IMG/VR virus record: IMGVR_UViG_3300020045_013484
Location: 1 to 34,444 of that record
Direction: 5' to 3' (one strand)
Source of the DNA: a virus
Taxonomy: Duplodnaviria; Caudoviricetes
DNA: 34,444 nucleotides
In this document: positions 1 through 31,874 of the stretch, piece by piece
Position numbering within the stretch: the stretch's first letter is position 1
Layout: the number at the start of each line of letters is the position of its first letter
Made by a program: the position numbers and the translations under genes
The notes under the pieces: generated by a model
Seen by the model: the letters and a program-made list of their open reading frames with translations, nothing else
What the model was told of the DNA's origin: nothing
The model's database searches: none

Positions 1-1
1 C

Positions 2-109
2 ATACTGCTTTGTATTCCTTTTGTTTTCCTTCTTCTACAACATAAAACCAATTTTTAACAGTTACTATACATTTCATTTTTTTTCTCCTTTTGTTTTTTA
101 TTTTTTTAA
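2..109. repeat. Direct duplicate of 825-931 at the contig start (probable chimera)
   Basis: Identical to 825-931 apart from a 1-nt T-run length difference; abuts the 3' end of the tyrosine recombinase gene. Confidence 0.9.
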
Positions 110-619
110 ATCTTGATTAGTTCCTATATACCTTAGTGTTATTGCTGGACTTGTATGGTTATAAAGTTCCTGCAGGAATGCGATATCTTTTGTCTTTTGA
201 TAATAATGGTAACCAAAAGTCTTTCTTAATGTGTGACAAGCCACTTTTTCCATTGCCATTTCACTAGAGATTACTTTAAGTATTTGGTGTATTCTTTGTC
301 TTGTTAAGGGCTTATTGTTTCCCTGTCTACTTTTTATCAAATAATCATTGTCATTTTTTCCTTCAATATATTTTTTAAGACCTTTTTTTAAATGTGGATT
401 AATTGAAATCCTTTTTAATTTGCTGGTCTTTTGTTCAATAAGTTCTATATGACTTTTGTTTCTTACGTCCTTAACTTTTAATTTTGTTAAATCAGATACT
501 CTTAATCCTGTATAAATGCCTAATAAAAAAAGAATGTGCTCCCGTTCTCCAATGGATTCCATTCTTTCCTCAAATTCTATAACCTGCTCCATATTCCTTA
601 TTGGGTCAACTGCTTTCAT
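98..619 (-). CDS. Small catalytic-domain-only tyrosine recombinase (C-terminus possibly clipped by the chimera)
   Basis: GLRVSD (R), EQKT (K), HTLRKT (HxxR), NHTS (H), LRYIG (Y); GAGGTG RBS. Confidence 0.93.
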   Translation of the reverse strand: MKAVDPIRNMEQVIEFEERMESIGEREHILFLLGIYTGLRVSDLTKLKVKDVRNKSHIELIEQKTSKLKRISINPHLKKGLKKYIEGKNDNDYLIKSRQGNNKPLTRQRIHQILKVISSEMAMEKVACHTLRKTFGYHYYQKTKDIAFLQELYNHTSPAITLRYIGTNQDLKK

Positions 620-633
620 AAGTCCACCTCAAT

Positions 634-900
634 TTATTCGGCAACATATATTGAGCTTTCGCCTGTAATTTTTACATACTCTTTCATATCCCAATTTCTT
701 ATTTCTGATTCTTTTGGAATTTCTGCTTCAATAGGTACAATTGCCACAACTTCTGTAATATTAATAAAAATTGGTTTTTCTTTACCTACTCTTACTCCCT
801 GTTCATTTTGAATTGTTTCTCCATATACTGCTTTGTATTCCTTTTGTTTTCCTTCTTCTACAACATAAAACCAATTTTTAACAGTTACTATACATTTCAT
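634..900 (-). CDS. Phage hypothetical protein
   Basis: 88-aa ORF, AGGAG RBS, coupled to the upstream ORF. Confidence 0.75.
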   Translation of the reverse strand: MKCIVTVKNWFYVVEEGKQKEYKAVYGETIQNEQGVRVGKEKPIFINITEVVAIVPIEAEIPKESEIRNWDMKEYVKITGESSIYVAE

Positions 901-1289
901 TTTTTTCTCCTTTTGTTTTTTATTTTTTTAACTTCTTCAATATTTTCAATTTTATTTATAACTGTAATGTCTTGTCCAGTAGCAAAATCAATTCCAAATT
1001 TATATTTAGGAAATTCTCTATTTAAAGTACTTTTACTAATAAAAATAAGAAAAGTTTCAACATCTACGTTTAAAGAACATGCATTGTGAAAAATTTTTAA
1101 ATAATCTTCAAATTGAAATTTTTCTACAATATCATAAGGCTTAGTAAAATTTATTATTGCATGAATACCTTTAACTACTTCTTCACACGAAAAGAAGGTG
1201 CTCCTATGAATCTTTTCTGCAATTTCAGATACTTTTTCAATATATTCATCTTTAATTTTTCCTTTGAAAAATACTGTATATCCATTCAT
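897..1289 (-). CDS. Hypothetical protein
   Basis: AAGGAGG RBS before ATG at 1289 (MNGYTVFF), preferred over the track start at 1349. Confidence 0.75.
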   Translation of the reverse strand: MNGYTVFFKGKIKDEYIEKVSEIAEKIHRSTFFSCEEVVKGIHAIINFTKPYDIVEKFQFEDYLKIFHNACSLNVDVETFLIFISKSTLNREFPKYKFGIDFATGQDITVINKIENIEEVKKIKNKRRKK

Positions 1290-1314
1290 TAAAAAACCTC
1301 CTTGAAATAACCTT

Positions 1315-1432
1315 TCAGTTTGACATATCTTATATTCTGTTAAACTCACAAAACTTTTTTAGTGTAGTATTTTCAATAGTTGTATTTAATTTTAATTATC
1401 AGTTTAACACAGCAAAAATAAAGTTAAACTCA
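1315..1432. other. Two tandem dif-like (11-6-11) recombinase-type sites
   Basis: TCAGTTTGAC-N14-GTTAAACTCA (1315-1348) and TCAGTTTAAC-N14-GTTAAACTCA (1399-1432), 84 bp apart. Confidence 0.55.
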
Positions 1433-1598
1433 TAGTAAAAATAAAATAAGTTATTGAATTCCCTATTTTCTTCATCACATAAAAAAATCCCTAAAGAATT
1501 TTAATCTATAAGGCTTTTTCAATATTAAGGAAGTATACATATTAGGAGTATAGCACGATTAATTTGTTTTTATGTATCAATATTTTATCAAATATTTA

Positions 1599-1868
1599 TC
1601 ACAATGAAAAATTACCAATTTTATGTCTTGTATTTTCAAATTCTTTTCTTAATTTTTCTTTTACATCTTCTTTTGTTTTTAGATTAAATAAATCCATATT
1701 TTCTTGAGTTAAATCAAAAGTTATTACTTTTGTATTTCCACAACTAAGAAAATCAGAAGTATCATTCCTTTCTTTTTCTGTTTCAAATATTCCAAAAGTA
1801 ACTTTTTCAGATATTCTATTTTCTGCAATTTCTACTAAACTACTTTGTAAACAATAAAAAACTATCAT
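1599..1868 (-). CDS. Hypothetical protein
   Basis: 89-aa ORF directly following 1869..2273, GAGGGG RBS. Confidence 0.7.
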   Translation of the reverse strand: MIVFYCLQSSLVEIAENRISEKVTFGIFETEKERNDTSDFLSCGNTKVITFDLTQENMDLFNLKTKEDVKEKLRKEFENTRHKIGNFSL

Positions 1869-2273
1869 CTATTCGTTCCCCTCAATCTTTCTTAATTGTT
1901 CAGCTTTTATTTGTGTTCTATTGAAACATCTTTGACCTTCTAAGTGTCCACTTGTAACAATTACGTATATATCCACCTCAATATAGTTATCTTTTCTAAT
2001 ACGAGATATAAAACCTCTCCCACCGTATAATTTATGGTTTTTATCTATAATTTCTATAAAATCATCAACTTTAAATTGTTCTTTTGGTTCTTTTGGTTCT
2101 TCCAATTCCTCATACATTTTTATTAGTTCATTAACTTTATCCTCGAACTTTTCAAAAGTTTCATTAAAATTACTTTTTCCTTGTTTTCTACCATTGCTCA
2201 TTAAAGTTAATTTTTTATCTATTTTTAATAAATCAGTTAAAGTTGTTTTAAACTTCTTAACATCTTTTGCCAT
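1869..2273 (-). CDS. Hypothetical protein with KOW/SH3-like C-terminal segment
   Basis: FKVDDFIEII...GGRGFISRI pattern; AGGTGG RBS. Confidence 0.7.
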   Translation of the reverse strand: MAKDVKKFKTTLTDLLKIDKKLTLMSNGRKQGKSNFNETFEKFEDKVNELIKMYEELEEPKEPKEQFKVDDFIEIIDKNHKLYGGRGFISRIRKDNYIEVDIYVIVTSGHLEGQRCFNRTQIKAEQLRKIEGNE

Positions 2274-2563
2274 ATTCCACCTACTTTCACATTATTTTTT
2301 TTCTCATAATAAAGCTCTTTTAGTTTTAAATTATCAATACTTTTGCATTCAGAAGAATAAAATTTCTCTTTTCCATTATCAAATTTTACTCTTATAGGAA
2401 AACAGGCTTTTGCATAGTAAGGGTAAAATAAATCTTTATTTTGAACTACTGTTCCCCAACCATATTTTAAAGAATAAACTCTATATCCTAATTTCAAATC
2501 TAAATTTAGTTGTAATTGATTTAAAGCTTTTATTTCTGGCTTATACATATCAAAAAGTGTCAT
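2237..2563 (-). CDS. Hypothetical protein, SH3-like
   Basis: LKLGYRVYSLKYGWGTVV...IRVKFDNG pattern. Confidence 0.7.
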   Translation of the reverse strand: MTLFDMYKPEIKALNQLQLNLDLKLGYRVYSLKYGWGTVVQNKDLFYPYYAKACFPIRVKFDNGKEKFYSSECKSIDNLKLKELYYEKKNNVKVGGIWQKMLRSLKQL

Positions 2564-2840
2564 TTTTTACACCTAATTTTAAGCTTGCTTGTGCTTCAAA
2601 TTGTTTCGGTTCATCTTTTGGAGGATTTGTTGAGTAATATTCAACAATGTTTTTACTAATTTCTTCAATAGTTCTTTTATTAATTGTTTCTGCGACATTA
2701 ATACGTTTTATAAGTCCATTTTTTTCTTTTGGCTCTCCATTATCTCTATTAAATTCTACGTCTTTAAATTCTCCTAATAATTTTCCATCAACAAAAATTT
2801 TACCTTTGCCTTTATAAATCTTAGTTGTATTTTTTGCCAT
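2550..2840 (-). CDS. Hypothetical protein with tail-tube-like N-terminus
   Basis: GGGGA RBS; N-terminus aligns with 24023..24439. Confidence 0.7.
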   Translation of the reverse strand: MAKNTTKIYKGKGKIFVDGKLLGEFKDVEFNRDNGEPKEKNGLIKRINVAETINKRTIEEISKNIVEYYSTNPPKDEPKQFEAQASLKLGVKNDTF

Positions 2841-2849
2841 TATTTCCCC

Positions 2850-3062
2850 CTAAAATAAAACTACTTTTTTATTATAAATATAATTAAGTCCTTCATCAAA
2901 ATTTATAGTTCTTTTGCTGATTTCTCCTGCCAAATCCATTTTAAAAATTAACTCATTAAATATTTTATGAGTTGTGATAAAAAAATCAAAAGTTCTATTC
3001 TCAATCATTTTTTTTATATACTCTAAATCATCTTTTTCCTCAATAATTAAAGCTTCTTTCAA
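2850..3062 (-). CDS. Hypothetical protein
   Basis: AGGAGTGA RBS before TTG at 3062. Confidence 0.7.
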   Translation of the reverse strand: MKEALIIEEKDDLEYIKKMIENRTFDFFITTHKIFNELIFKMDLAGEISKRTINFDEGLNYIYNKKVVLF

Positions 3063-3093
3063 TTTATCACTCCTATTTTTAATTTTTATAAGT

Positions 3094-3595
3094 AAAAAAA
3101 CCAAGATGTTTTAACAAATTGGCTTCGAGCATATCTCACGACATTCTCTATTTTTTTTAGTGAAGTTAGACGACCTCATTATTTGAGTTTAAGGAGTTCT
3201 CAAATTTCATTTCTAGTGTTTATTTTAGAGTTAAACTACTTTGACTTTTAAAACTCTAAGCCGATTTTTTTTAAAGTGTTAATCGGGTTATGTAAGGCAC
3301 TTTTTACTTTTTTTCCAAAAAGTATAAAAATCATGTTTTCAGATTTTACAAGGAAACTTCTGATTTGGTTGCTCAATAGCATAGTCTATTGAAAAGGCCT
3401 CTGCCTTTTAATGGGTCATATCCTTTCCTCACTAACTTTAAGGTAACAGCACCTTATACAATACACAAAGATTTATGAACTCTATAAGATGTTACGTAAC
3501 CCTAACCCCAAGTTTACGTTTGATTGACCTCTCTGACTAAACTTCTGAACCTGCGTCAATCTTCCTTTTTAACCAAATCGTGACAGATTTACTGG
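3094..3595 (-). ncRNA. Candidate large structured non-coding RNA
   Basis: ~500 nt without an ORF; about 10 local hairpins plus long-range helices; G-U pairs work on the minus strand; ends in a hairpin plus U7 at 3094-3125. Confidence 0.6.
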
Positions 3596-4033
3596 TTAAT
3601 AATTTATACAACTTTTTACATAATTTGTCAACTCTTTTAAAACTTCAATATTAAATCTTTTAATAGTTCTTTCAATCTTTTCTTGAACTATTTTTTTTAC
3701 TTCTTCTTTATCAAATTTAAATTTTTTTAATCCTAAATGTTTTACTTGTGTATTTAAATATATATCTTCCAAAACTTCATAAACTTCTTCAAAATCTGAA
3801 TCATTTATTTGCATAGCCATTAAAACATTATCACCAAATTCCTCATTACAATCATATATTAACTTTTGTCTACCATTAACTTTTTCAAATTCTAAATTGC
3901 CAATTATACTTTTAATATCAAATTTTCTAAGTTCCATTAATGCAATATTTAGTTCCAAATATTCCTCTTGAGCTTTTAACTTTTGTTTTTCTGCTCCAAA
4001 ATATAAATATATTAACTGTGCTTTTTCTCTCAT
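3596..4033 (-). CDS. MazG-like nucleotide pyrophosphohydrolase
   Basis: FGAEKQKLKAQEEYLEL and EEFGD motifs (EExxE...ExxD) of all-alpha NTP pyrophosphatases. Confidence 0.6.
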   Translation of the reverse strand: MREKAQLIYLYFGAEKQKLKAQEEYLELNIALMELRKFDIKSIIGNLEFEKVNGRQKLIYDCNEEFGDNVLMAMQINDSDFEEVYEVLEDIYLNTQVKHLGLKKFKFDKEEVKKIVQEKIERTIKRFNIEVLKELTNYVKSCINY

Positions 4034-4485
4034 TATTCCCCCTTAATTTTTTTAAAAAAAGTATCTATTTTCAATAAAAATATTTCAAAATAATTATACA
4101 TAATTTTTCCAAATTTATTTACTGCAAAACTTAGTTCTACACTTTCCATGAAAATAAGTTTCTTAATGTTATTGTTATAAAATAAATAATAAAGCTCCTC
4201 TATGTATTCTTTATTCCAGCCTTTTTTTAAATAATGTTCTAGTAGTTCTTCTGAAAGCCCATGTTTTTTATTTATTAAATTTTGTAGATGTTCTTTATAA
4301 TCTCCTGCAGGTCTGGGATATAAAACTATTAAATTTAATAGCTTAACTCCCTTAAGATTTTCTTCATTATTTACAAGTAATACATCTCTTTGATTTATAG
4401 ACCTTAAACCGTATAATTCTAAAAGTTTTATAGCTGGAATATAATGTTCTCCTGCAAAACAACTTATCAAAACATATTTAATCAT
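4033..4485 (-). CDS. Hypothetical protein
   Basis: 150-aa ORF, translationally coupled, GGAGG RBS. Confidence 0.75.
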   Translation of the reverse strand: MIKYVLISCFAGEHYIPAIKLLELYGLRSINQRDVLLVNNEENLKGVKLLNLIVLYPRPAGDYKEHLQNLINKKHGLSEELLEHYLKKGWNKEYIEELYYLFYNNNIKKLIFMESVELSFAVNKFGKIMYNYFEIFLLKIDTFFKKIKGE

Positions 4486-4922
4486 TAGCCCTCCTTATAG
4501 CTGTTAACCCCTTGATATAAAGTAAACTCATTATAATTAAGTTTGAATATCTGCTTATCTTTATTAAATTCAGCACTTATTAAATTATCTCTCATGCTTT
4601 TATTGTTTATATGTACACCGTATTTGTTATTTAAGATACTAAATACTTTTTTATTTTTCATGGGAATTAATTCAACTTTTTCATAATTTAAATCTTTAAC
4701 ATAAATAAAATTTTCTATAAATACATTGAGTAAATTTACATGTATTTTTTTATTTTTATAAAAACTATTTAGTGTATTTATGCAATCTTTTATATGCTCT
4801 ATATTTTTACTTGTGGTTTCTAAAAATATATAGCCATTATAAATATAATTCTCTTTAATTGTATTCATATCGTCAAAATTAATTATATGTTTAACTAAAA
4901 ATCTAACTTCATCATTTGTCAT
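4485..4922 (-). CDS. Hypothetical protein
   Basis: 145-aa ORF, AGGGGA RBS. Confidence 0.75.
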   Translation of the reverse strand: MTNDEVRFLVKHIINFDDMNTIKENYIYNGYIFLETTSKNIEHIKDCINTLNSFYKNKKIHVNLLNVFIENFIYVKDLNYEKVELIPMKNKKVFSILNNKYGVHINNKSMRDNLISAEFNKDKQIFKLNYNEFTLYQGVNSYKEG

Positions 4923-5279
4923 TTATTCCCCTTTCAGCTCGTAAGCTGTGCAAAAGCTTGTTTCATGATTTTTAACTAAATAACTTTTGCTTTTGCATAG
5001 CTCAAAACTTTTACAACTTAAACAATTTTTTAACTCTACTTTTTTATTTTCTGCAAGGATCTTATTTACTCTCAAATAATAATGATTCCCATGTTTATCT
5101 TTTTTAGATTGTTGGTTATTATTAGCATTAAATATTTGAATAGTTTCTTCTTTTTTATTCTTGGTATAAACTACAATTTCATTTATCCTATTTTCTTTTA
5201 CTATAAAGGTTTCTATAAGTTCTTTATTACTATCATAGCCATAAAGCTTGTCATTTTCTTTTTTGTCCTTAAAAGCCAT
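4923..5279 (-). CDS. Hypothetical protein with C-terminal Cys cluster
   Basis: CLSC...C...C motif; ATG at 5279 after GGTGGAG. Confidence 0.7.
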   Translation of the reverse strand: MAFKDKKENDKLYGYDSNKELIETFIVKENRINEIVVYTKNKKEETIQIFNANNNQQSKKDKHGNHYYLRVNKILAENKKVELKNCLSCKSFELCKSKSYLVKNHETSFCTAYELKGE

Positions 5280-5344
5280 TAACTCCACCAGCTACTTACT
5301 GAAGTTAAAAGTATTAATGCAATTATTGATAAAAATAACCTCAT
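5279..5344 (-). CDS. 21-aa hydrophobic peptide MRLFLSIIALILLTSVSSWWS
   Basis: AAGGAG RBS; ATGA and TAATG overlaps with both neighbours; fills the gap exactly. Confidence 0.55.
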   Translation of the reverse strand: MRLFLSIIALILLTSVSSWWS

Positions 5345-5745
5345 TCTAGCTCCTTGTGGGCTTGTGTTGCTGTTTTACAATAATCTAAGTAATCTAAACC
5401 TATTCTTTCGCCACCGTTGCTGTCGTCCACTTGGTAGCCATTAAAACGTATAACATTGTCAAATTTTTGTATTTTCATGTTTATTTCCATAACAAGTTGT
5501 TTTATATCTCTACTAACCGAATTTATAGTTGTATTTGATATTCCACCTTCTTCAATCCATTTCATACGTCTTTCAAGAATATTTACTATATCACAAGTTT
5601 CCTCAAGCATATCCAATGCTCCGTCCCTGTAAATATCCCTATCTCCGTATTTTTTATGTCCCCAAATTGCTCTAGCTTCTCTTAACGTTTCTATTTCCTC
5701 ATTTGTTAATCCCATTACTCTTGGTTGAAATTTTGTATTTCCCAT
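5341..5745 (-). CDS. Putative all-alpha NTP-pyrophosphatase-fold phage protein
   Basis: GHKKYG...DMLEETCDIVNIL pattern; AGGAGG RBS. Confidence 0.5.
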   Translation of the reverse strand: MGNTKFQPRVMGLTNEEIETLREARAIWGHKKYGDRDIYRDGALDMLEETCDIVNILERRMKWIEEGGISNTTINSVSRDIKQLVMEINMKIQKFDNVIRFNGYQVDDSNGGERIGLDYLDYCKTATQAHKELE

Positions 5746-5753
5746 TGTTCCTC

Positions 5754-5894
5754 CTAATCTTTTATCATCATAATATTGAATGAATATATTTTTGTATCTC
5801 TTTCGTGTGCATTTTTTAAGATAATATCAAGTTCTTTTTCAGCTTCTATTTTATTATCTGTGTCAAAAACTATTTCAACTAATACTTTTGTCAT
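5754..5894 (-). CDS. Small hypothetical protein (46 aa)
   Basis: MTKVLVEIVFDTDN...; AGGGGAG RBS; fills the intergenic gap. Confidence 0.65.
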   Translation of the reverse strand: MTKVLVEIVFDTDNKIEAEKELDIILKNAHERDTKIYSFNIMMIKD

Positions 5895-6071
5895 TTACTC
5901 CCCTTTCCAAATTTTATTAACTCTTTCAAGTCTTTTATAATACTTTTGAGCTACTTTAAAACATCTGTTGAGTACTGCATTTTCAATTTTATAATCAATC
6001 TTTTCAATAATTCTTTTATACTGTTTATATTTTTTTAAAGCTAGGATATACCAAGCTAATTTTTTAATCAT
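5895..6071 (-). CDS. Small basic hypothetical protein
   Basis: ORF coupled to its neighbours. Confidence 0.6.
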   Translation of the reverse strand: MIKKLAWYILALKKYKQYKRIIEKIDYKIENAVLNRCFKVAQKYYKRLERVNKIWKGE

Positions 6072-6909
6072 TAGACCACTCAACTTTTACAGTTCCTCTA
6101 ACTTTTGCAACTGATTTTAAAATATAAAAATCTTTATCATGATTTAATATTGCAAGTCTTTCGGCTTCTTTTTCTGCTGTTTCTAATTTTGTAAATAATG
6201 ACATATCACAAGTCGGATTATAAACATAATAGTATTCTATATTAATAATTTGTTCTAATTGATTTTCATTGAAATCTACTATTTCTCCGTTTTCTAAAGT
6301 TATTGAGTATATTGAGTTTTTGCAAGGGTAGTCAATAATTCCTAGAGCTCCTCTATATCTTCGTATATCACTTTTTATAATTTTTACTCTATCGCCACTT
6401 TTATATTTTGTAGTTTGTACATTGAGATTTTTTGTTTCTTCCCAATCAATATGATTTTTATAATAAGCAATACCATTTGAAAGATATATTTTTTCATCTT
6501 TAAAATTAGGATTTATATTTATGCTTTCAACTTTTAATATTTCTTCTAATCCTAATGCTTTAAATTTTCTACCAACTTCAAGTTCAAAAGGCTCTTCATG
6601 TTGCTTGTCCTCAACTTTTTTAATATAATCTTTATGTTGAATTACAGCAATATTTTCTAAATATATTCCGATTGTACTGTCTACTACAAATATTATTACT
6701 CCTATTTTTCCAGTTAAATTATTTAAATTATTATATCCATTAGCTAAAATTTTTACTTTATCCCCAATTTTAAATTCTTTATTTAATTTTTTATCTGTTC
6801 TTTTTATAATTTTTTTTGTTATTTCTTGAAGTTCTTCAAATTCTAATTTAAAAATTTGTTCTGTCATAAATTTTCCAAACTCTATTGCTGCTTTTTCAAT
6901 ATTTTCCAA
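6064..6909 (-). CDS. Protein with repeated KOW/SH3-like modules
   Basis: FKIGDKVKI, LEVGRKFK and YKSGDRVKI repeats; GGAGG RBS before TTG at 6909. Confidence 0.7.
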   Translation of the reverse strand: MENIEKAAIEFGKFMTEQIFKLEFEELQEITKKIIKRTDKKLNKEFKIGDKVKILANGYNNLNNLTGKIGVIIFVVDSTIGIYLENIAVIQHKDYIKKVEDKQHEEPFELEVGRKFKALGLEEILKVESININPNFKDEKIYLSNGIAYYKNHIDWEETKNLNVQTTKYKSGDRVKIIKSDIRRYRGALGIIDYPCKNSIYSITLENGEIVDFNENQLEQIINIEYYYVYNPTCDMSLFTKLETAEKEAERLAILNHDKDFYILKSVAKVRGTVKVEWSND

Positions 6910-7657
6910 CTGTAAACCTCCATTTTTTAAGGGCTTATAAGGCATACCAGTAGCCCTATAAACCCTTTGAGATATTTCATTTTAAACTAAACATAAGCGA
7001 TAAAATTACAGATATTCCAACATTTTTTTAATCAGTAAAGCTTTATTTAAAGTATCAACACCTGTTCCGTTCAAGTGCTAATATCAAAAGAAGTTTATTT
7101 ATTATTATTAGTTAAAGATTTGTTTTTACTTAATTTCATATTAGAAATACTGTCCATTCCCATCATTAATTCCAAAATTTCTAATTCTTCTTTTGTATAT
7201 TCTTTTTGCTGCTCTTCTTCCTGTTTTTCTTCATAAACTTTAATATGCTCATTTCCAAACTTAAAAACAGAAGCTTTTAACACTAAACTTAAATGATAGT
7301 TATAATATTTAAAATCACTAATAATTAAATCATAAGTATCTTGAGTACATTTTATTCTAAAGCTATACTTATTTTCTCTTTTTTGAGAACCATAATAATA
7401 TTTTAGTCCATACGAACTCATAATACGGTGCATTAATATTTTTTCATATTCATTTTTAGGTATTAATCTGAACATTAGTATTTCTAGCTCTTTTAATTCA
7501 TTTTCTTCAATTTTATATTGTTCTTTTAATTCAATATACCTTTCTTCCCAGCTCTTTCTTCTAAAGTTAAAGAATCATCATCAATCATATTTCTTATTTT
7601 CAACAATTTATGTTTTATTTTTTCTTGTTTTCCCAACTGTAAACCTCCATTTTTTAA
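6906..7657. repeat. 25-bp direct repeat (6906-6930, 7633-7657) containing RBS and TTG start
   Basis: Exact CCAACTGTAAACCTCCATTTTTTAA in both places. Confidence 0.9.
7095..7636 (-). pseudogene. Frameshifted ~180-aa gene (DUF2786-like N-terminus); true pseudogene or sequencing indel
   Basis: GGAGG-TTG at 7636 reads MGKQEKIKHKLLKIRNM...EER; another frame continues WEERYIELKEQYKI... into the 7095..7475 ORF; 542 nt, one base short of a whole number of codons. Confidence 0.6.
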
Positions 7658-7664
7658 AGAATCT

Positions 7665-7844
7665 TCATTTTATAACTGCTGTATTAATTTGTTTATAAAA
7701 TAAATAAACTTTTTCTTTTTTAACTTCTAAACTATCATATTTCATTCTTAGTTCTCCGTAAATTAAAAATTTTTCACCTTTTTCAACTACAGTTTTGCAT
7801 TCTTTTTTTTGCAGCATAATTTTTAAAATATCTTTATCGTCCAT
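7665..7844 (-). CDS. Small hypothetical protein (59 aa)
   Basis: AGGAGGA RBS, MDDKDILKIMLQKKECK...; below the ORF-track size cutoff. Confidence 0.7.
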   Translation of the reverse strand: MDDKDILKIMLQKKECKTVVEKGEKFLIYGELRMKYDSLEVKKEKVYLFYKQINTAVIK

Positions 7845-7864
7845 ATATCCTCCTAAATTATTTT

Positions 7865-8308
7865 TTATAAATCTAACTTATAAAATAAAGCCCAAAGCCC
7901 TTTTTCATTAAGAAGCTCTAAAGCTTCTTTTCTTCTTCTGTGCATTGTAGCACTTGAAAGATTAAGTTCTTCTTGTATTTGATTATTGGTTTTATTTTCA
8001 ATGTAACCTAAATTGATAACTCCAAATAATTCATCTCCGTTTTTTTCCTGCTTTAATTCTGCAATTTCTGAAAGTATTTGGTCTGCAATTTTTTTCGTTT
8101 CTGCTGCTTTTTGAAGCAATTCTTCTTTTTTTATAATTGATAATTCTAAAGCTGCATTTCCTGTTATGTATTTACATGAACGTTTTCCTTCGCCTATACC
8201 ATTATAAGAAATCGCTTTTAAAGTTTCTATTTCAGCGTTAGCACAAACTATTAAAGACTTTTCTTTGTTTCTAATCTTTTTGTAATTCTTTAAAACCTGT
8301 TCGACCAT
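7865..8308 (-). CDS. RinA/ArpU-like late transcriptional activator
   Basis: C-terminal sigma70-r4-like HTH (KTNNQIQEELNLSSATMHRRRKEAL) after an N-terminal coiled coil. Confidence 0.7.
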   Translation of the reverse strand: MVEQVLKNYKKIRNKEKSLIVCANAEIETLKAISYNGIGEGKRSCKYITGNAALELSIIKKEELLQKAAETKKIADQILSEIAELKQEKNGDELFGVINLGYIENKTNNQIQEELNLSSATMHRRRKEALELLNEKGLWALFYKLDL

Positions 8309-8380
8309 TTGAACAACTCCCTATTTTTATAAAGTGCCAACGCTGACACTTTTAAAATTATAAGTGTCTTTATGACACAA

Positions 8381-9238
8381 TTAAGCTAAAAAATTTCTGA
8401 ATTTATCCTTATCTATTTTCCTTCTACTTTCCCCTATTACTGCAATTGGATAACACATTTCAATTATCCTATCCCTAATACGTCCTTTACTATCAAAGTT
8501 TTTTATAAATTCACATTGGCTTTTATCTATTGAAAAATTTAAATTTGTAGTAATTATCATGCTTTTTTCTGCTCTGTATCTAGTATCAATCAAACTGAAT
8601 AGTTTTTCCTCAACCCATTCACTATATTTTTCAGTTCCTAGGTCATCTAAACACAATAAATCAACTTCTCTAACTGCTTTTAGTATTTCTTCCTCAACCT
8701 TTGGAGCTTCGTTTAAATCGATTTTGAGCTTGTTTAAATACTGCTTTAAACTCATAACTAATACAGTTTTTTTATTTTCGATTAAATAATTAGTAACAAA
8801 AGCCATTAAAGTTGTTTTCCCTGTTCCTGCATTCCCATGCAACAAAACCCCTTGAGCTTCATCTTTTATAAGAAAAACTTTTGCGTACTTAAACATTGTA
8901 TTCTCGTATTTATCCATTGTTTCAATATCTGAAAATTTTGCTTTTTCAAACTTTGTATCTATTACTGAAATTTCTTTATATTTTTTATTAAAATTTCCCA
9001 TGGCTTTCAATCTGTTTTCTTCTATTGTTTTTTCAATTGTTAAACTAATTTCTTTGTTTTTTTCTTCCTCAACTTTATCAGCATAACAATTACAGTTTGG
9101 CATATAGAAATAAATTATTTTGTCGCTCCCTCTATCACGAGTTAAAAAACTCATAAAACTAGGAATTTCAATATATTCTATTCCACATTTTTCGCAAATA
9201 CATTTTTCTTTTGCTTTAAAATAAAACTCTTTTTTCAA
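8381..9238 (-). CDS. DnaC/IstB-like AAA+ helicase loader
   Basis: CEKC...CNC zinc motif, Walker A GNAGTGKT, Walker B LLCLDDLG, IITTN. Confidence 0.92.
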   Translation of the reverse strand: MKKEFYFKAKEKCICEKCGIEYIEIPSFMSFLTRDRGSDKIIYFYMPNCNCYADKVEEEKNKEISLTIEKTIEENRLKAMGNFNKKYKEISVIDTKFEKAKFSDIETMDKYENTMFKYAKVFLIKDEAQGVLLHGNAGTGKTTLMAFVTNYLIENKKTVLVMSLKQYLNKLKIDLNEAPKVEEEILKAVREVDLLCLDDLGTEKYSEWVEEKLFSLIDTRYRAEKSMIITTNLNFSIDKSQCEFIKNFDSKGRIRDRIIEMCYPIAVIGESRRKIDKDKFRNFLA

Positions 9239-9239
9239 T

Positions 9240-10025
9240 TTACACCTCTTCTAAAACATCATTAAAACTTGTATCATGTTTTGTTTCTTCATAATTTCCT
9301 ATTTTTTGAGGTTCTACTACTGGAGCAACTTCTTTATAAACTTCATCTAAATAATCAGCACAAATTAAATCTTCGCTATCTTTTTTCTTTTGTCCGAAAA
9401 GCTCTGATAAAGGTCTAATTTTTATTTTGTAATCTCCTTTATTTTTTGTAGCTTCAACCTTCTTACTGTGACGGTCTATAATTCTTAATAAATACTTTAA
9501 GTCTAATTTATAGGTCTTAATAGCTTTATCAATTGCTTTTCGTATTGGTATAGTTAATTCTTTATGCTTTATTAAATTTGGTTTTGTTAAATAATAGTTA
9601 TAAACATATATATATATATTTATATCTGTGTTTATATCTGTGTTTATATCTGGTATTGGTTCCACGGTTTGCGTATTTCCATTTAACGTTCCCGTTAAAT
9701 CCATTTCACCGTTTGCGTAAATGCATTTCACCGTTTTGGTTAGTGCATACCATTTTGTACGGTCATAAGAAAGCTTGTTAAAATTTCCAGTTTTAACTGC
9801 TCCTTTTTCTTCAAGACTTTTTAAAATTCTCTCTATTTGTCTTGGTGTCCAGTAAGGAAATAATTTTGTAAAAGCTTTAACAGAATTATAAGTCCAGTAA
9901 TCTCCTTCATAAAAATGTTTTTCATTGGCTTCATTTTTTTCTATCCAAAAGTACAAATTTTCAATTATTATGGCATTTTCAACGCCATATAATTTAGCTG
10001 CTGTAACATTAAAACTATGATTCAT
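9240..10025 (-). CDS. Phage replication initiator (replisome organizer, wHTH)
   Basis: HSFNV..AKLYG...YWTYNS...FPYW...DRTKWY N-terminal pattern; lies upstream of the DnaC-like gene; contains internal repeats. Confidence 0.85.
   Translation of the reverse strand: MNHSFNVTAAKLYGVENAIIIENLYFWIEKNEANEKHFYEGDYWTYNSVKAFTKLFPYWTPRQIERILKSLEEKGAVKTGNFNKLSYDRTKWYALTKTVKCIYANGEMDLTGTLNGNTQTVEPIPDINTDINTDINIYIYVYNYYLTKPNLIKHKELTIPIRKAIDKAIKTYKLDLKYLLRIIDRHSKKVEATKNKGDYKIKIRPLSELFGQKKKDSEDLICADYLDEVYKEVAPVVEPQKIGNYEETKHDTSFNDVLEEV
9605..9745. other. Putative replication origin inside the initiator gene
   Basis: (AT)n run; 12-bp repeats TTTATATCTGTG (9619-9652); 22-bp-period iterons (CATTTCACCGTTT at 9702 and 9724; GTTTGCGTA at 9667 and 9711). 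Confidence 0.65.
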
Positions 10026-10176
10026 GTATACTCCTTTCTTTTATATTATTTTGAAACTTTTCATCTTGTTTTGTGTCTTTAAGACACTTTTCAATTAAAA
10101 AAAAATTTGCAAAATCTAAAGCTAAACTATTAAAGTTTATATCTTTTTTTGTGTAAAAATTTTCAAAAGTTCTCAT
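10015..10176 (-). CDS. Small hypothetical protein
   Basis: AAGGGGA RBS before ATG at 10176. Confidence 0.55.
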   Translation of the reverse strand: MRTFENFYTKKDINFNSLALDFANFFLIEKCLKDTKQDEKFQNNIKERSIHES

Positions 10177-10186
10177 AAATTTCCCC

Positions 10187-10372
10187 TTAAAATAATTCTT
10201 CAATACTCCTATTGAAGTATTTTGATATTTTTTTCAAATTCAAAATAGAAGGTTCTCTATGACCTATCTCGTAACAAGCATAAGTACTTCTATTGATTCC
10301 AAGTTCTTTTGCCACTTGGTCTTGTGACAACTTTTTTTCTTTTCTAGCTGCAATTAATCTTTCTTTCCTCAC
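10187..10372 (-). CDS. Xre/Cro-family HTH regulator
   Basis: RKEKKLSQDQVAKELGINRSTYACYEIGHREPS; AAGGAGGT RBS. Confidence 0.93.
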   Translation of the reverse strand: MRKERLIAARKEKKLSQDQVAKELGINRSTYACYEIGHREPSILNLKKISKYFNRSIEELF

Positions 10373-10423
10373 AGTACCTCCTTGTTATAGAGCAACTTAT
10401 TACAAAAGTTGACCTTTAGAAAC

Positions 10424-10454
10424 ATTTTAATCTATTTAGTTACTAAAAGCAACA
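10424..10454 (-). promoter_or_regulatory. Sigma-A promoter of the HTH/replication operon with overlapping operator
   Basis: TTGCTT-17-TAAAAT (10452-10424); GTTGC-N5-GTAAC over the -35. Confidence 0.7.
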
Positions 10455-10480
10455 TCTTTTTGAAAACTTTTACACATTTA

Positions 10481-10606
10481 TTATAATGCTCCTAATTTTT
10501 TTAATTCTTCAAAAGTACAGTTTTTACCGTACTTATGCATAAGAACTCTTAAATCCATTTGAATAAACCACCAATTTGATTTTACTGTTGTTTTTCTTTT
10601 CCCCAT
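10481..10606 (-). CDS. Small hypothetical protein (41 aa)
   Basis: GGGGGT RBS, MGKRKTTVKSNWWFIQ... Confidence 0.55.
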   Translation of the reverse strand: MGKRKTTVKSNWWFIQMDLRVLMHKYGKNCTFEELKKLGAL

Positions 10607-10628
10607 TGTGCATACCCCCATAAATTTT

Positions 10629-10790
10629 TTATTTATTTTTACATAATTTCATTTGTTTAAATTGTTTATTTATAAGTTTTGCTTGTTTTTCTCCTGTAAG
10701 GTTTTTAATCTCTTGCTTCATAGCTCTGAAATAATATATTCTTTCAGCTAATGCTAACTTTAAAAGTTCTTTATTATTTAGTAGTACCAT
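10629..10790 (-). CDS. Small hypothetical protein (53 aa)
   Basis: AGGGGGT RBS, MVLLNNKELLKLALAERI... Confidence 0.65.
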   Translation of the reverse strand: MVLLNNKELLKLALAERIYYFRAMKQEIKNLTGEKQAKLINKQFKQMKLCKNK

Positions 10791-10852
10791 TTTTACCCCC
10801 TGTTAAATTTAATTACTTAATACCTCCCTCACTTGAGAGAAGCATTAAATAA

Positions 10853-11074
10853 TTAAATCCATTTTCCATTACCTAAAAAATGTTTGTGATTTTCTACAAA
10901 TTTTATACATTCTTTTCTATATTGTTCTTTATCACTATAATTTTTTGAATGTATTTCAATTTCGTTTGGCACTTCGTATAAACTAATTTTTTCATCATCA
11001 GTCATTGTTATAAACTCAAATAATTTACCTTTTTTTAAATCATGTAAAATTTCATCTTTAAAAGACATTTTCAT
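10853..11074 (-). CDS. Early hypothetical protein
   Basis: 73-aa ORF between hairpin repeats, AGGGGGT RBS. Confidence 0.7.
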   Translation of the reverse strand: MKMSFKDEILHDLKKGKLFEFITMTDDEKISLYEVPNEIEIHSKNYSDKEQYRKECIKFVENHKHFLGNGKWI

Positions 11075-11133
11075 TACCCCCTGTTTAATTTAATTACTTA
11101 ATACCGAGCTTGTGTAAGCCCAGCATTAAAGAA

Positions 11134-11826
11134 TTAATAATCTGCATTTGATAATCTAGTATTGCAATCATCTTCGTAAATCTCTAAACCGATAATGTTT
11201 GTTTTATTGAAATATGCTTTTAAAAGTCTTTTTTCAAAAGAATCCATTATTCCTAACCTAAATAGTCCTTTAACTTCTTTGCTTTCAATTTTTAAATCTA
11301 ATAATTTATTTGTTTTTTTACATATTCTAAATATATATTTAGCATTATATTTACTATATACTCCACTATCTTCATCTATGTAAATAGACGCCCAAGCATG
11401 AAATTCATTATCAATTTCTAAAAAGAAATGTTTATCATAGTCATCTTCATCATCATTCATATTACTTTTTCTAAAATTTTCTATTAAGTCCACTAACTGT
11501 ATTTCCTGTTCTGTTTCAAAAAATTCTTTTGTACTTTCATATACCAAATTTTGTAATTCATTCTTTTCTATACAATCCATAACATTTATAATTTGTTCTT
11601 TAAAAAACTCTCCGTATCCCTTAAAAGTAATATTTTTTACCTCTTCGCCTGCTGTTTCAATAAATTTCTTTTCAATAATTTTTCTAAAATCCCAACTTTC
11701 TAACGAATTTTTTATTGATTTGTTTAAAGTTTCTTCAAGCCCTTTTCTTATTTGCTGTCTTACAAAATCCTCATTCTCTAATTTTTTTAACTCTTCTTGA
11801 TAAATTTCAGAAACATTGATATTCAT
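11134..11826 (-). CDS. Early acidic hypothetical protein
   Basis: 230-aa ORF between identical repeats, GGAGGT RBS. Confidence 0.85.
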   Translation of the reverse strand: MNINVSEIYQEELKKLENEDFVRQQIRKGLEETLNKSIKNSLESWDFRKIIEKKFIETAGEEVKNITFKGYGEFFKEQIINVMDCIEKNELQNLVYESTKEFFETEQEIQLVDLIENFRKSNMNDDEDDYDKHFFLEIDNEFHAWASIYIDEDSGVYSKYNAKYIFRICKKTNKLLDLKIESKEVKGLFRLGIMDSFEKRLLKAYFNKTNIIGLEIYEDDCNTRLSNADY

Positions 11827-11909
11827 TGTGTAACCTCCAGTTTAAAGCCAATTAGGCTATTTAATTACTTAATACCGAGCTTGTGTAAGCCCAGCATTAA
11901 AGAATTAAA

Positions 11910-12143
11910 CTAATTTTCTTTAATTTCTTTTAAAACAAACCCTTGCTCTTGTTCACTTTTTAAAAAGAATTGAAACCAATCTTCTAATTCTTCAATATTT
12001 TTTAACTTTTTAGTTAAAGAATTTGCAGGGTCATACCCTGATATAAAAAAATTATAAGATACTTTAAAATACATATCTTTTGTTTCATAAGAGATAAAAC
12101 ACTCGTCTTTTTTATCGTTAATTAATAAAGCTCTTTTTTTCAT
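11910..12143 (-). CDS. Early hypothetical protein
   Basis: AAGGAG RBS before ATG at 12143. Confidence 0.7.
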   Translation of the reverse strand: MKKRALLINDKKDECFISYETKDMYFKVSYNFFISGYDPANSLTKKLKNIEELEDWFQFFLKSEQEQGFVLKEIKEN

Positions 12144-12210
12144 CTTAACCACTCCTTTTTATTTAATTGCTTAATACCTCCCCCAGCAGGAGAAGCATTA
12201 AAGAATTAAA

Positions 12211-12507
12211 TTACTCTCCCATATATTCAATCACTTGTTTTGTACACTCTTCAAAATTTCCATTTTCATCAACTTTATAATCTTCTTCACAGGTAAATAT
12301 GAAGCATTGTGGATTTTCACTTTTAGTTTCCCAACCCTTTAACTCATAACATATTTGGTATCTAGCCCAATCCTTACCACTTGTCAAAAGTTCTTTATTA
12401 GCTGTTTCAATTTCTGTTTTTACTTCTTCCCATATTGGATTTTCAATTCTTGCTCTTTTGTTATAATCTTCTTTAAACTCTTCAAAACTTTTGTATTCTT
12501 TTTCCAT
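12211..12507 (-). CDS. First early hypothetical protein
   Basis: Acidic ORF just downstream of the leftward promoter; start uncertain (12507, 12513 or 12546). Confidence 0.7.
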   Translation of the reverse strand: MEKEYKSFEEFKEDYNKRARIENPIWEEVKTEIETANKELLTSGKDWARYQICYELKGWETKSENPQCFIFTCEEDYKVDENGNFEECTKQVIEYMGE

Positions 12508-12560
12508 TTTCATTACCGCCAGTTTTATTTGTGTCGCTTTACGCAACTTCTTATATAATA

Positions 12561-12712: not shown

Positions 12713-14239
12713 ATGAAGGCTTTTATATATTGTAGGTATTCAAGTGACAATCAAAATTTCTTATCAATCGAAGCTCAAAACAGGGCAATAGAGGAATTTT
12801 GCATTAAAGAAGATATTCAAATAATAAAAAAATATTATGATGAAGCTCAATCAGCTAGAACTGACAACCGAACTAATTTTTTATTAATGTTTGATGAAAT
12901 GTTAATATATAAACCCGATTATGTAATAGTTCATAAATTAGATAGATTTGCACGTAATCGTTATGATAGTGCTTTTTATAGAAAAAAATTAGAAAACAAC
13001 GGCACAAAATTAATATCAGTTTTAGAGCCAAACGAAGATACTCCAGAAAATTTAATTTTAACTGGAATACTTGAAACCATGGCCGAGTATTACTCTAAAA
13101 ATTTGGCTAGAGAAGTAAAAAAAGGAATGAAGGAAACTGCTCTACAATGTAAACACAATGGAGGAACTGCTCCGACTGGCTATGATGTTGCAAAAGATAA
13201 AACTTATATAATAAATGAAAATGAATCTGAAATAGTGAGAAATATTTTTAAATTATACTTAGAAAATTTTGGTTATATAGGAATTTCAAAAGAATTGAAT
13301 GCATTAGGATTTAAGACAAAAAAAGGCGTGCCATTTGGTAAAAATTCTATTCGTAAAATTTTAACTAATGAAAAATATACAGGGCTTTTTATATTTGCTA
13401 AAGGCAAGGAAAATGAAATAAAAATAGAAAATGGAATCCCTCAAATTATAGACCAAGAAACTTTTCAAAAGGTTCAACATAAACTTAGTTTACATAAGCC
13501 AAAACCAAGGGTAAATCAAAAAAACTATTTCATGTTAACAGGATATATAAAGTGTGGAGAATGTGGAGGGGCTTTTGTAGGAAATAGTACTGCTGCTGGA
13601 AGGAATAACAAAAGATATAATATATATACTTGCAGCACTAAAATAAATAAAAAGACCTGTAAAAATAAAGATATTAGGCAAGAACTTATAGAAAGTTATG
13701 TAATTGAAGAATTGCAAAATAAAGTTTTTTCAGATAATGCAATAAATGAGATTGCCGAAAAAATGATTAAATATACTAAGATTGAAATGAGTGGACAAAT
13801 AGAAGAAAAAAGCAGGCTTGAAGAAGCTAAAAAACAAACTCAAATTAAAATTGATAAACTCTTTGATTTATACCTTGATGGAGATATTGAAAAAAGTGCT
13901 ATATCTGAAAAGATAAACACTCTTAAAAACGATTTAAACGGCATTTCTGAACGTTTGTTTAAGTTAGACGTGTCTTTTGTTGGGAAGATAGACAAAAACG
14001 CTTTTGTGGCATTCTTGAAGCTCTCACGAGATACTTTAAAAGACAATGACACAAAAATTAAAAGAAAGATAATAGAAACCTTTGTTGAAAAAATTATAGT
14101 TTTTGACAAAAAAGTGGAAGTCTATTTTAATATTACTGATAAGGTTGGTGGAGGCGAGGGGCTACATAGACTATCAGTAAAAATAAAGGGTTCAATTTCA
14201 AAAAAAGACTTGTTTAATATACTTAAAAAAAGTGCATAG
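12713..14239 (+). CDS. int: Large serine recombinase (integrase)
   Basis: YCRYSS catalytic Ser, VHKLDRFARN, recombinase domain, CGECG...C...C zinc ribbon, coiled coil. Confidence 0.97.
   Translation: MKAFIYCRYSSDNQNFLSIEAQNRAIEEFCIKEDIQIIKKYYDEAQSARTDNRTNFLLMFDEMLIYKPDYVIVHKLDRFARNRYDSAFYRKKLENNGTKLISVLEPNEDTPENLILTGILETMAEYYSKNLAREVKKGMKETALQCKHNGGTAPTGYDVAKDKTYIINENESEIVRNIFKLYLENFGYIGISKELNALGFKTKKGVPFGKNSIRKILTNEKYTGLFIFAKGKENEIKIENGIPQIIDQETFQKVQHKLSLHKPKPRVNQKNYFMLTGYIKCGECGGAFVGNSTAAGRNNKRYNIYTCSTKINKKTCKNKDIRQELIESYVIEELQNKVFSDNAINEIAEKMIKYTKIEMSGQIEEKSRLEEAKKQTQIKIDKLFDLYLDGDIEKSAISEKINTLKNDLNGISERLFKLDVSFVGKIDKNAFVAFLKLSRDTLKDNDTKIKRKIIETFVEKIIVFDKKVEVYFNITDKVGGGEGLHRLSVKIKGSISKKDLFNILKKSA
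14133..14180. other. attP inside the integrase gene; core resembles a tmRNA 3' end
   Basis: Perfect 9-bp inverted repeat TTACTGATA/TATCAGTAA bounding 48 bp; centre lies in TGGTGGAGGCGAGGGG (reverse complement CCCCTCGCCTCCACCA). Confidence 0.8.
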
Positions 14240-18015: not shown

Positions 18016-19091
18016 ATAGTAACACTTCCTAAAACTGCAACCTCTTCACTTGCTAATATAATGTTTGCTGTAGTTCCATTCAGCGTTAGACTGCTAACGT
18101 CCAAAACTCCTTCAATATTAACTATAATAGCTGAAATTTTGGCATAAGAAACATAATTTATTGTTTCATGAAAAGCAATTTCTTGAAAATATTTTGTAAT
18201 AGCTTCGACAATAGCAAGTCTAATTTGTTCAGTAGTATAATTAGCTGATTTTGTGATAGTTGCGACTACATTACAAGTTTTTTGTGTTCCTGCTGCTATT
18301 GTGCAATAACTTCCAAGGGCTGCTTGTCCGTATCCTTTACCCCATTTTGAAACGTCAATCGGGTCAATGTAAGTCTGTGTATCTGAAACTAAATTAACAG
18401 AAGCAGGAAGCATATTATCATTCAAAATAACTACTTTCACACTATTATTTCCGTTCCAAGTTGGGAAAACTTTAGCCCTACCAACTCCTGCGACTTCCCT
18501 AGCCCATTTTTCAAAATGATAAATATTATTACTTGTCGCTGGCTTTCTTACATCATCAAGGTATCTTTCAAGTAAACTCTCACGGCTTTCAGCTTCAAAA
18601 CCATCATAGCTGGCTTCCAAATTTGTAACTCCTGTTATACCTTCAAGAGTTACTGGAATTTGTATAATACTTTCAGTTCCTACCATTCCAATAGTTCCAG
18701 CTTCTAAGCATTCAGCTTTTACAGTTCCAATCAAATTTATAACTATTGTTTCATTTGCTTTAAAAAGTACTTTATTAAGTGTAGAAAATAAATCCCCTTC
18801 GTTAACTGTTCCTTGACCTGTCACGGTCAAAACTACTTGTGCTGGAGTTGCTTCTTTTCTTATAATTCCTCTTCTAGTTCTTGCTTCAATCATTAACTCT
18901 TCTAAGGTCATATTTTCAGGATTTAATTTACTTTGTAATGCTTCTGTATATGTTTCTTGAATTGCTAGTTCGATTGCATTGACTTTTATAATTTCATAAG
19001 TTAAAAAACCTGCTGTATCTTTTTCATATTCACTTGGTAAATTGCTCTTTTGTCTATCAAAAATTATTTGTTCTTTTTCGGTCAATTTCAC
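18012..19091 (-). CDS. Baseplate J/gp47 family (XkdT-like)
   Basis: GFEAESRESLLERY...WAREVAGVGRAKVFPTWNG. Confidence 0.92.
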   Translation of the reverse strand: MKLTEKEQIIFDRQKSNLPSEYEKDTAGFLTYEIIKVNAIELAIQETYTEALQSKLNPENMTLEELMIEARTRRGIIRKEATPAQVVLTVTGQGTVNEGDLFSTLNKVLFKANETIVINLIGTVKAECLEAGTIGMVGTESIIQIPVTLEGITGVTNLEASYDGFEAESRESLLERYLDDVRKPATSNNIYHFEKWAREVAGVGRAKVFPTWNGNNSVKVVILNDNMLPASVNLVSDTQTYIDPIDVSKWGKGYGQAALGSYCTIAAGTQKTCNVVATITKSANYTTEQIRLAIVEAITKYFQEIAFHETINYVSYAKISAIIVNIEGVLDVSSLTLNGTTANIILASEEVAVLGSVTI

Positions 19092-19558
19092 ACCACCTCT
19101 GATATTGCAATAGTTGAACTATCTGCTAAATTAACATTGAAAGATACTTCTAATTTTGTGCTACTTAATACAGCTTCAAAATTATCAACTGGATTAACTG
19201 AATCAACTAAGCTTATTTTTTTTAGATTATCTTTCAATTCTCTTTTAAGTTCTGATAAAATAAATCCTTGTGAAACTTTGATACCTTTGAAATTAAAATA
19301 AGTCATTCCAAAATCTGTGTCTTCATAAATTTTAAATTTGTCTAATTCAGTTCTAAGAAGTACTTGAATAAACATTTGAATTTTTTCTTCAATAGTTTCA
19401 GCAATTTTTACTTTACCGTTTTCAATAACCACTCTTGCTTCATTTTCTTCATTGAAAGTCATCATAAAAACTGTTCCAATGTTTTTTGATACTGTTTCAC
19501 TTGTACTTTGAGCATTAATAGAAGATATTATATTGTCTAAATCTAAGCTGGGTAACAT
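19088..19558 (-). CDS. Baseplate protein (XkdS/DUF2634-like)
   Basis: Synteny; LRTE...IY...FG pattern. Confidence 0.7.
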   Translation of the reverse strand: MLPSLDLDNIISSINAQSTSETVSKNIGTVFMMTFNEENEARVVIENGKVKIAETIEEKIQMFIQVLLRTELDKFKIYEDTDFGMTYFNFKGIKVSQGFILSELKRELKDNLKKISLVDSVNPVDNFEAVLSSTKLEVSFNVNLADSSTIAISEVV

Positions 19559-31661: not shown

Positions 31662-31874
31662 CTATTTTTTTTCTGTTGGCAATCTAGCAAAAATAAAAGC
31701 TAGAAAAATTAAACTTATTCCTGCAACATAAAATCCAGCTACATAGTTAATTAAAAAAGTAGCGTATACAATAAAAAATAATCCTAAAATAAATAATATT
31801 TCGGGATTATTTTTCTTGAATAATTCTTTAATTTTTTTAATTCGTGCCACCGTGGCACTTTTAATTTTTTTCAT
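31662..31874 (-). CDS. Small two-TM protein between terL and portal
   Basis: EILFILGLFFIVYATFLINYVAGFYVAGISLIFLA. Confidence 0.7.
   Translation of the reverse strand: MKKIKSATVARIKKIKELFKKNNPEILFILGLFFIVYATFLINYVAGFYVAGISLIFLAFIFARLPTEKK
31844..31858. repeat. Palindrome copy 5, inside coding sequence
   Basis: GTGCCACCGTGGCAC encoding SATVAR. Confidence 0.85.

Follow-up and report, generated by a model that had tools for sequence, protein, structure and literature searches.

A Predicted Noncoding RNA Gene of About 500 Nucleotides in an AT-Rich Temperate Myovirus

The largest stretch free of open reading frames (ORFs) in the phage genome described here likely encodes a folded noncoding RNA of about 500 bases, because promoter-like and terminator-like sequences bracket it and it is rich in hairpins. 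The noncoding RNA gene is probably real and is probably neither a ROOL nor a GOLLD RNA. Its shape and job are predictions, since no catalogued family matched and no relative was found. The window, meaning the whole stretch of DNA analysed, covers all 34,444 bases of the source record, which is linear, 89% complete by CheckV, and 28.6% G+C.

By its PHROGs annotation, the phage is a temperate myovirus. A serine integrase gene lies on the plus strand (12713-14239), and the minus strand holds the replication genes, a middle region that is uncharacterised, and the genes for head, contractile tail, and lysis. A small tyrosine recombinase of 173 aa is encoded at the end of the middle region (98-619, minus strand), so that this 173-aa enzyme and a large serine integrase occur in one phage. 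No repressor gene was recognised beside the serine integrase, and ARAGORN found no tRNA or tmRNA gene in the window. Among cultured phages, the tail sheath is closest to that of Fusobacterium phage phiHugo (42%), the integrase to that of a Moorella phage (41%), and the terminase to those of Geobacillus phages (45%); the host would be an AT-rich member of the Bacillota or Fusobacteriota.

A near-identical hairpin, AGTGCC, 3-7 nt, GGCAC, recurs on the minus strand at gene junctions of the late region, and long U-tracts follow four of its copies. It is missing from the other loci examined, from the genome of a related contig (L082, below), and from phiHugo. It is a candidate for a shared terminator family or for the site of one regulator. 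Its positions are as follows.

Near 31860, 28508, 27532, 23997, 14932, and 14271, minus strand: repeated late-region hairpin
Near 8350, minus strand: weaker copy of the same hairpin

The Gap and Its Boundaries

The gap spans 3063-3595 (533 nt) and is, as originally predicted, the biggest ORF-free stretch of the genome; the runner-up is 256 nt. Its lower edge depends on where the downstream gene begins, which was set at TTG 3062, after an AGGAG site, a choice backed by a homologue of 70 aa. The features in and around the gap are the following.

3596..4033, minus strand: upstream gene, 145 aa, ending at the gap edge
3603..3631, minus strand: predicted promoter of the sigma-70/sigma-A type (TTGACA-17-TATAAA), within the final codons of the upstream gene
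3094..3597, minus strand: predicted noncoding RNA, about 504 nt, both ends predicted
3094..3126, minus strand: intrinsic-terminator-like hairpin plus U7, of modest strength
2850..3062, minus strand: 70-aa gene with its own AGGAG site, directly after the terminator; one homologue at 58%
2871-2899, minus strand: another promoter-like sequence (10/12), within the final part of the 70-aa gene and directed at the genes that lie toward the tyrosine recombinase

The promoter is the sole 11/12 match on the 34.4-kb minus strand and one of four when both strands are counted. Because shuffling yields about two such matches per strand, at random places, the weight of the match rests on its position. The predicted +1, 6-7 nt after the -10 box, falls at 3597-3596, no more than a few bases from the edge of the gap. 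A stock promoter scan missed the site because it requires T at the last position. Both the -35 and the -10 box are covered by a 21-bp direct repeat in two copies (3599-3639), which may represent an operator or a duplication from which the promoter arose. At the other end, the RNA had been expected to finish in a hairpin plus U7, and the sequence has one: the hairpin at 3126-3094 has a predicted energy of -9.1 kcal/mol, although a strict terminator scan did not report it. The RNA had also been described as lying within the middle operon. With a promoter-like site at its 5' edge, it would not be just a part of that operon, and a discrete gene of about 500 nt has better support than in the original prediction.

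The G+C content of the gap is 32.3%, as compared to 25.9% in bases 1-12546; the four next-largest gaps range from 18 to 27%, and the fifth reaches 32.5%. A small peptide gene was rejected as the content of the gap, as the longest minus-strand frame has 44 codons and lacks a ribosome site. Small ORFs in the RNA lack a clear ribosome site, save one of three codons noticed by eye.

The upstream gene product is possibly MazG-like, which we treat as a lead only. Its three relatives match it at 47-49%, and the homology reaches only to codon 129, which lies 15 nt short of the -35 box. In contig L082, which carries one of these relatives, the next gene begins 134 nt farther on, and no similarity to the RNA is present. 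This contig is a phage-like, AT-rich sequence of 39.7 kb filed in a Saccharibacteria bin, possibly by mis-binning. The promoter and terminator bracket, the rise in G+C, and the lack of the RNA in L082 together give promoter, RNA, and terminator the look of an optional cassette, which would be a noncoding counterpart of a phage moron.

The same layout has another reading, in which the promoter drives the 70-aa gene (3062-2850), with the 500 nt as a cis-acting leader, either an attenuator or an RNA antitoxin. We consider this possible but doubtful. A sigma-A promoter, a structured RNA, an intrinsic terminator, and a gene follow one another in the same way in RCd22-abiF of the C. difficile phi027 prophage, as described in the accessible text of PMC12373285, and type III toxin-antitoxin loci share the layout. 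The second promoter, 10/12 at 2899 and placed after the small gene, makes the 70-aa gene a one-gene unit, and CCAA/UUGG words (3597-93, 3576-71, 3370-65, 3123-19, and 3104-3099) could pair to open the terminator; alternative folds are found within 4 kcal/mol. The modest terminator and the presence, 30 nt farther on, of a gene that has its own ribosome site count against a separate RNA gene and fit a leader too. However, RCd22 is only about 130 nt long and holds two copies of an Rfam motif, whereas there is no tandem repeat inside this RNA; 500 nt is long for a leader to 70 codons; no Rfam riboswitch or leader matched; and the small protein has no defence-family hit. Membership in the type III toxin-antitoxin or AbiF type found no support, the RNA body being free of tandem repeats and the 70-aa gene giving no recognised toxin hit. 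Searches of Pfam, PHROG, and PADLOC returned nothing for the 70-aa product.

Local Hairpins and Global Fold

The original prediction described the gap as filled with helices, and all 20 of the stem strings that it listed are present where it placed them. The gap contains nine perfect local Watson-Crick stems of at least 7 bp within 40 nt, some of them mutually exclusive, as compared to 1.35 ± 1.12 in dinucleotide shuffles; for stems of at least 6 bp, the count is 17 versus 5.2. Neither count is reached by any of 200 shuffles. The excess of stems (z 5.9) lies above those of 12 of 12 ROOL controls (maximum 4.5), 17 of 17 gaps from other phages (maximum 3.4), and 15 of 15 tiles of the same phage (maximum 3.3). 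The raw stem count is equalled by one of 68 tiles, a low-complexity one at 31501. Base pairs with a probability above 0.8 number 102, as compared to 52 ± 21 in 78 shuffles (maximum 92), which indicates a well-defined ensemble.

Folding energies tested against dinucleotide shuffles, a check proposed with the original prediction, give z values of -3.21 and -3.10 for the minus strand, where 0 of 100 shuffles are as stable, and -1.35 for the plus strand, where 9 of 100 are. From this difference, the element must read on the minus strand. With DNA parameters the asymmetry between strands is smaller (z -2.65 versus -2.02) than when the sequence is folded as RNA. The z value is not diagnostic of a structured RNA, as one ROOL control scores -1.07 and 1 of 18 tiles of the same phage scores -3.19. 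In phiHugo (L191), a gap of 573 nt between the holin and integrase genes (18930-19502) reaches z values of -5.1 to -5.5 and folds as a row of long hairpins, which are probably terminators around an attachment site.

That phiHugo gap, whose z of -5.5 arises from stacked terminator-like hairpins, lends some support to the view that the present gap is ordinary intergenic DNA, in which terminators, decayed hairpins, and protein-binding palindromes cluster by chance behind a promoter. A portion of the gap is identical to the 5' arm of the phage's repeated terminator, folding with DNA parameters is above shuffles on both strands, no homologue was found, and the long-range helices are at chance level. 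We nevertheless regard chance clustering as unlikely. The hairpins lack U-tracts except for the last, the promoter and terminator bracket the gap exactly, G+C goes up rather than down within it, and the stem excess beats that of all 17 gaps from other phages.

The claim of an approximately 500-nt ornate RNA thus divides. The discrete gene stands on its promoter, terminator, and local stems, whereas the long-range layer does not rise above chance. Helices of -12 kcal/mol or better number 9, as compared to 8.7 in shuffles (101 of 200 have as many), and the best long-range duplex is equalled in 51 of 217 shuffles. The end-closing TCACGA stem and the GATTTGGTT and GATTGAC stems are missing from the minimum-energy fold (-117.4 kcal/mol). 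Forcing them gives -113.9 and -112.0 kcal/mol for stems imposed singly and -107.7 kcal/mol for all three, a cost of 9.7 kcal/mol. Nor do the suggested pseudoknots rise above chance. With the UAAGGUGC pairing imposed, the fold reaches -105.6 kcal/mol, a cost of 11.8 kcal/mol. Alternative folds lie within 4 kcal/mol of the best, and adding 100 upstream bases switches the ensemble to a long rod over 3567-3350, so the fold is boundary-dependent. On a single sequence, the ornate layer, multi-junction and pseudoknotted, and the status of a new class are unproven. The elements of the predicted fold are the following.

3588-3549 and 3544-3510, minus strand: two 5' hairpins of the best fold, pair probabilities 0.8-0.86, boundary-dependent
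3438..3505, minus strand: long irregular hairpin of 27 pairs, in both unconstrained folds, probabilities 0.75-1.0
3157..3435, minus strand: predicted multibranch domain with closing arm 3435-3409 / 3181-3157, most helices above 0.85
3408-3393, 3392-3373, 3324-3305 (GGAA tetraloop), 3286-3261, 3259-3225, and 3205-3181, minus strand: predicted hairpins in the multibranch domain
3188..3198, minus strand: hairpin loop with an anti-Shine-Dalgarno-like CUCCUU, predicted unpaired

The two 5' hairpins (3510-3588) compete with the GATTTGGTT/AACCAAATC and GATTGAC/GTCAATC stems, and the closing arm of the multibranch domain is not above chance. The RNA also contains a 10-nt self-complementary word (3494-3503), which is at about the chance level estimated for 500 nt and is a possible dimer contact.

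Family Tests and Searches for Relatives

The original prediction offered a divergent ROOL or GOLLD member, or a new class, and proposed a comparison with Rfam. That comparison returned nothing relevant at E<=1 over the window or at E<=10 over the 681-nt region 3040-3720, and searches with the ROOL, GOLLD, group I intron, OLE, and RNase P type B models one at a time gave no match at E<=10. For ROOL (RF03087), whose covariance-model cut-off is 99.1 bits, the single-family run had silent controls; in the Rfam positive controls one ROOL scored 130 bits and 20 of 20 submitted loci exceeded the cut-off.

A likeness seen by eye between 3435-3297 and the middle of the Rfam ROOL consensus (CAAUAGAC, CCAA..AGUUU.CCUUG) led to the gathering of a ROOL set for profile comparison. 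A motif scan yielded 77 loci, from which 20 were picked by eye and aligned, selected on the words UGAAG, UAUAA, and AGUAGCC. With a profile from 17 of 21 ROOLs, this RNA scores -7.2 bits, and 27 of 100 shuffles score as high; all four held-out ROOLs score above all 100 shuffles. The profile from all 21 sequences gives no alignment to this RNA. For core-only profiles, 65 of 300 and 56 of 300 shuffles reach its score, as compared to 0 of 300 for the control. With profile scores at about the level of shuffles, the ROOL core words UGAAG, UAUAA, and AGUAGCC were not recovered in order.

These scores and the blank Rfam result led us to reject ROOL membership, and a highly divergent ROOL or GOLLD member now seems barely credible. 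The size is near the ROOL mean of 581 nt given in the accessible text of PMC5737381, and the likeness to the consensus middle is suggestive to the eye, but the two look-alike words leave no room for ROOL's two hairpins.

For GOLLD (RF02032), which is marked by a conserved 3' domain, the 416-position model gave no match at E<=10 among six candidates, in a run made without a true GOLLD control. The OLE model (RF01071) produced no candidate, its control genomes being equally silent, and the Rfam-wide runs gave no OLE hit. The RNA contains a GAGGUCA/UGACCC pairing that is P7-like, which we take to resemble group I introns. A group I intron (RF00028) was nonetheless rejected, with no match at E<=10 while the controls were detected and only about 36 nt where P4-P6 would sit. 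RNase P RNA type B (RF00011), with its P4 pseudoknot, was likewise rejected, with no match at E<=10 and controls detected. A CsrB-like sponge was set aside because only four GGA words, one of them in a loop, were counted by eye. Among the ROOL loci, one (L173, approximately 452-1045, minus strand) contains a tRNA gene (619-691) inside a linker; such tRNA embedding is described for GOLLD in the accessible text of PMC12990946.

Nucleotide searches found no relative of the RNA. One blastn search against phages returned no homologue and another returned 15 records with pieces of at most 45 nt; a search against plasmids returned 27 records with pieces of at most 50 nt. Motif scans, which depend on exact words whose conservation was guessed, gave no related locus among 36, 6, and 2 from viral contigs or among 8 from metagenome contigs. 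An nhmmer search over 81 loci recovered only the window itself, and complete records of phages that are related or carry ROOL (sets of 5 and 47) contain only matches of 14-23 nt. Bacterial DNA was represented by one genome and three plasmids. Given the guessed words and the sparse coverage of bacterial genomes, this blank result is evidence of little weight.

The flanking genes are nearly as isolated. In collections of billions, the upstream protein has three relatives, the 70-aa protein has one clear relative, and the gene at 4033-4485 has none. The upstream gene has no relative in viral contigs, and neither flanking gene has one in cultured phages. By these counts of protein relatives, the phage lineage is rare. 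In the literature, no paper describing this RNA was found, as judged by titles in a coverage that mostly excludes subscription papers. Five short motifs of the RNA are missing from six supplement files of the viral structured-RNA survey PMC10690425, and the candidates in the accessible part of that survey are 29-151 nt long.

Proposed Action and Comparison with Known RNAs

The reading that we favor, with about even confidence, is an accessory noncoding RNA gene of about 500 nt that is driven by a host-type promoter and acts through its fold, ROOL/GOLLD-like in kind without being a member. In this scheme, host RNA polymerase would transcribe from the promoter-like site at 3631-3603. Expression would be expected in the lysogen, since a consensus housekeeping promoter needs no phage activator, and most transcripts would stop at the hairpin-U7 at 3094. 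The product would fold into about a dozen hairpins: three at the 5' end, about six in a multibranch domain, and the terminator at the 3' end. By analogy with ROOL and GOLLD, it may then serve in trans as a stable scaffold or as a decoy that binds proteins, and it might self-assemble or bind a partner. The sequence offers no kissing-loop or partner support for the scaffold step. The scheme is built on a single sequence, and the window lacks a tRNA, unlike the frequent ROOL/GOLLD neighbourhood.

Action in trans by base pairing was also considered. One feature bears on it.

3296..3312, minus strand: 17 nt complementary to the repeated late-region terminator hairpins (3' arm and U-tract), recognised post hoc

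In such a mechanism, 3312-3296 would pair with the repeated late terminators and alter read-through, and the CUCCUU loop would pair with ribosome-binding sites. The best contiguous duplex of the RNA with the minus strand (17 bp, -23.8) is at the terminator that follows the major capsid gene, the third-best is at the one following the tail tube gene, and the match to the terminator set is reached by 8 of 500 shuffles and by none of 59 other windows. That test was post hoc, made once the match had been seen. Shuffled RNA gives a genome-wide best duplex averaging -24.6 (40 shuffles), so the strength is ordinary; any U-tract can pair with an A-rich RNA; part of the segment is already paired in the predicted fold; and no paper titled on such a phage RNA was found. 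We judge this mechanism improbable. A bolder version is more speculative still. In it, an uncatalogued class of about 500 nt would form a multi-domain particle, made from the prophage's strongest host-type promoter, whose exposed strand would grip late terminators and time virion gene expression in trans.

The favored reading, an accessory RNA gene acting through its fold, can be set beside several known systems. RNAIII of S. aureus is an AT-rich RNA of about 500 nt that forms a string of hairpins with pyrimidine-rich anti-Shine-Dalgarno loops. It is encoded on the chromosome, acts as an effector of quorum sensing, has several C-rich loops, and contains a peptide gene. The present RNA shares the length, the AT-richness, and the hairpin string; it has no Rfam match and only one anti-Shine-Dalgarno-like loop. 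With RCd22/abiF it shares a prophage unit of promoter, structured RNA, terminator, and gene. RCd22, however, measures about 130 nt and has two abiF motifs ahead of the AbiF toxin, whereas here 500 nt without repeats precede a 70-aa gene without a family.

The closest comparison in kind is with the very large structured RNAs of bacteria and phages, which are few, and two of which form RNA-only cages of unexplained purpose. ROOL and GOLLD occur in prophages (PMC5737381, accessible text) and form cages (PMC12286853, accessible text); the ROOL RNA of L. salivarius is described in the available part of PMC5643018 as an abundant transcript separate from the downstream gene, and such large RNAs are reviewed in PMC12990946. 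Like ROOL, the present RNA is a large (approximately 500-600 nt) intergenic RNA from a phage of low-G+C bacteria; it differs in having neither sequence or profile similarity nor tRNA neighbours, and six junctions and three pseudoknots are features of ROOL. Like GOLLD, it is a large structured RNA that would be borne by a prophage; it differs in lacking a match to the 416-position model, and many GOLLD RNAs are longer than 800 nt and are found close to tRNAs (PMC12286853, accessible text). If the prediction is true, an unrelated RNA of the same size, cleanly bounded by promoter and terminator and carried as an optional cassette, would provide a compact test of whether abundance and assembly are shared without shared sequence, a value limited by its being a single sequence from an uncultured phage. 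Large structured phage RNAs are already known as a kind; what is new here is a sequence outside the catalogued families.
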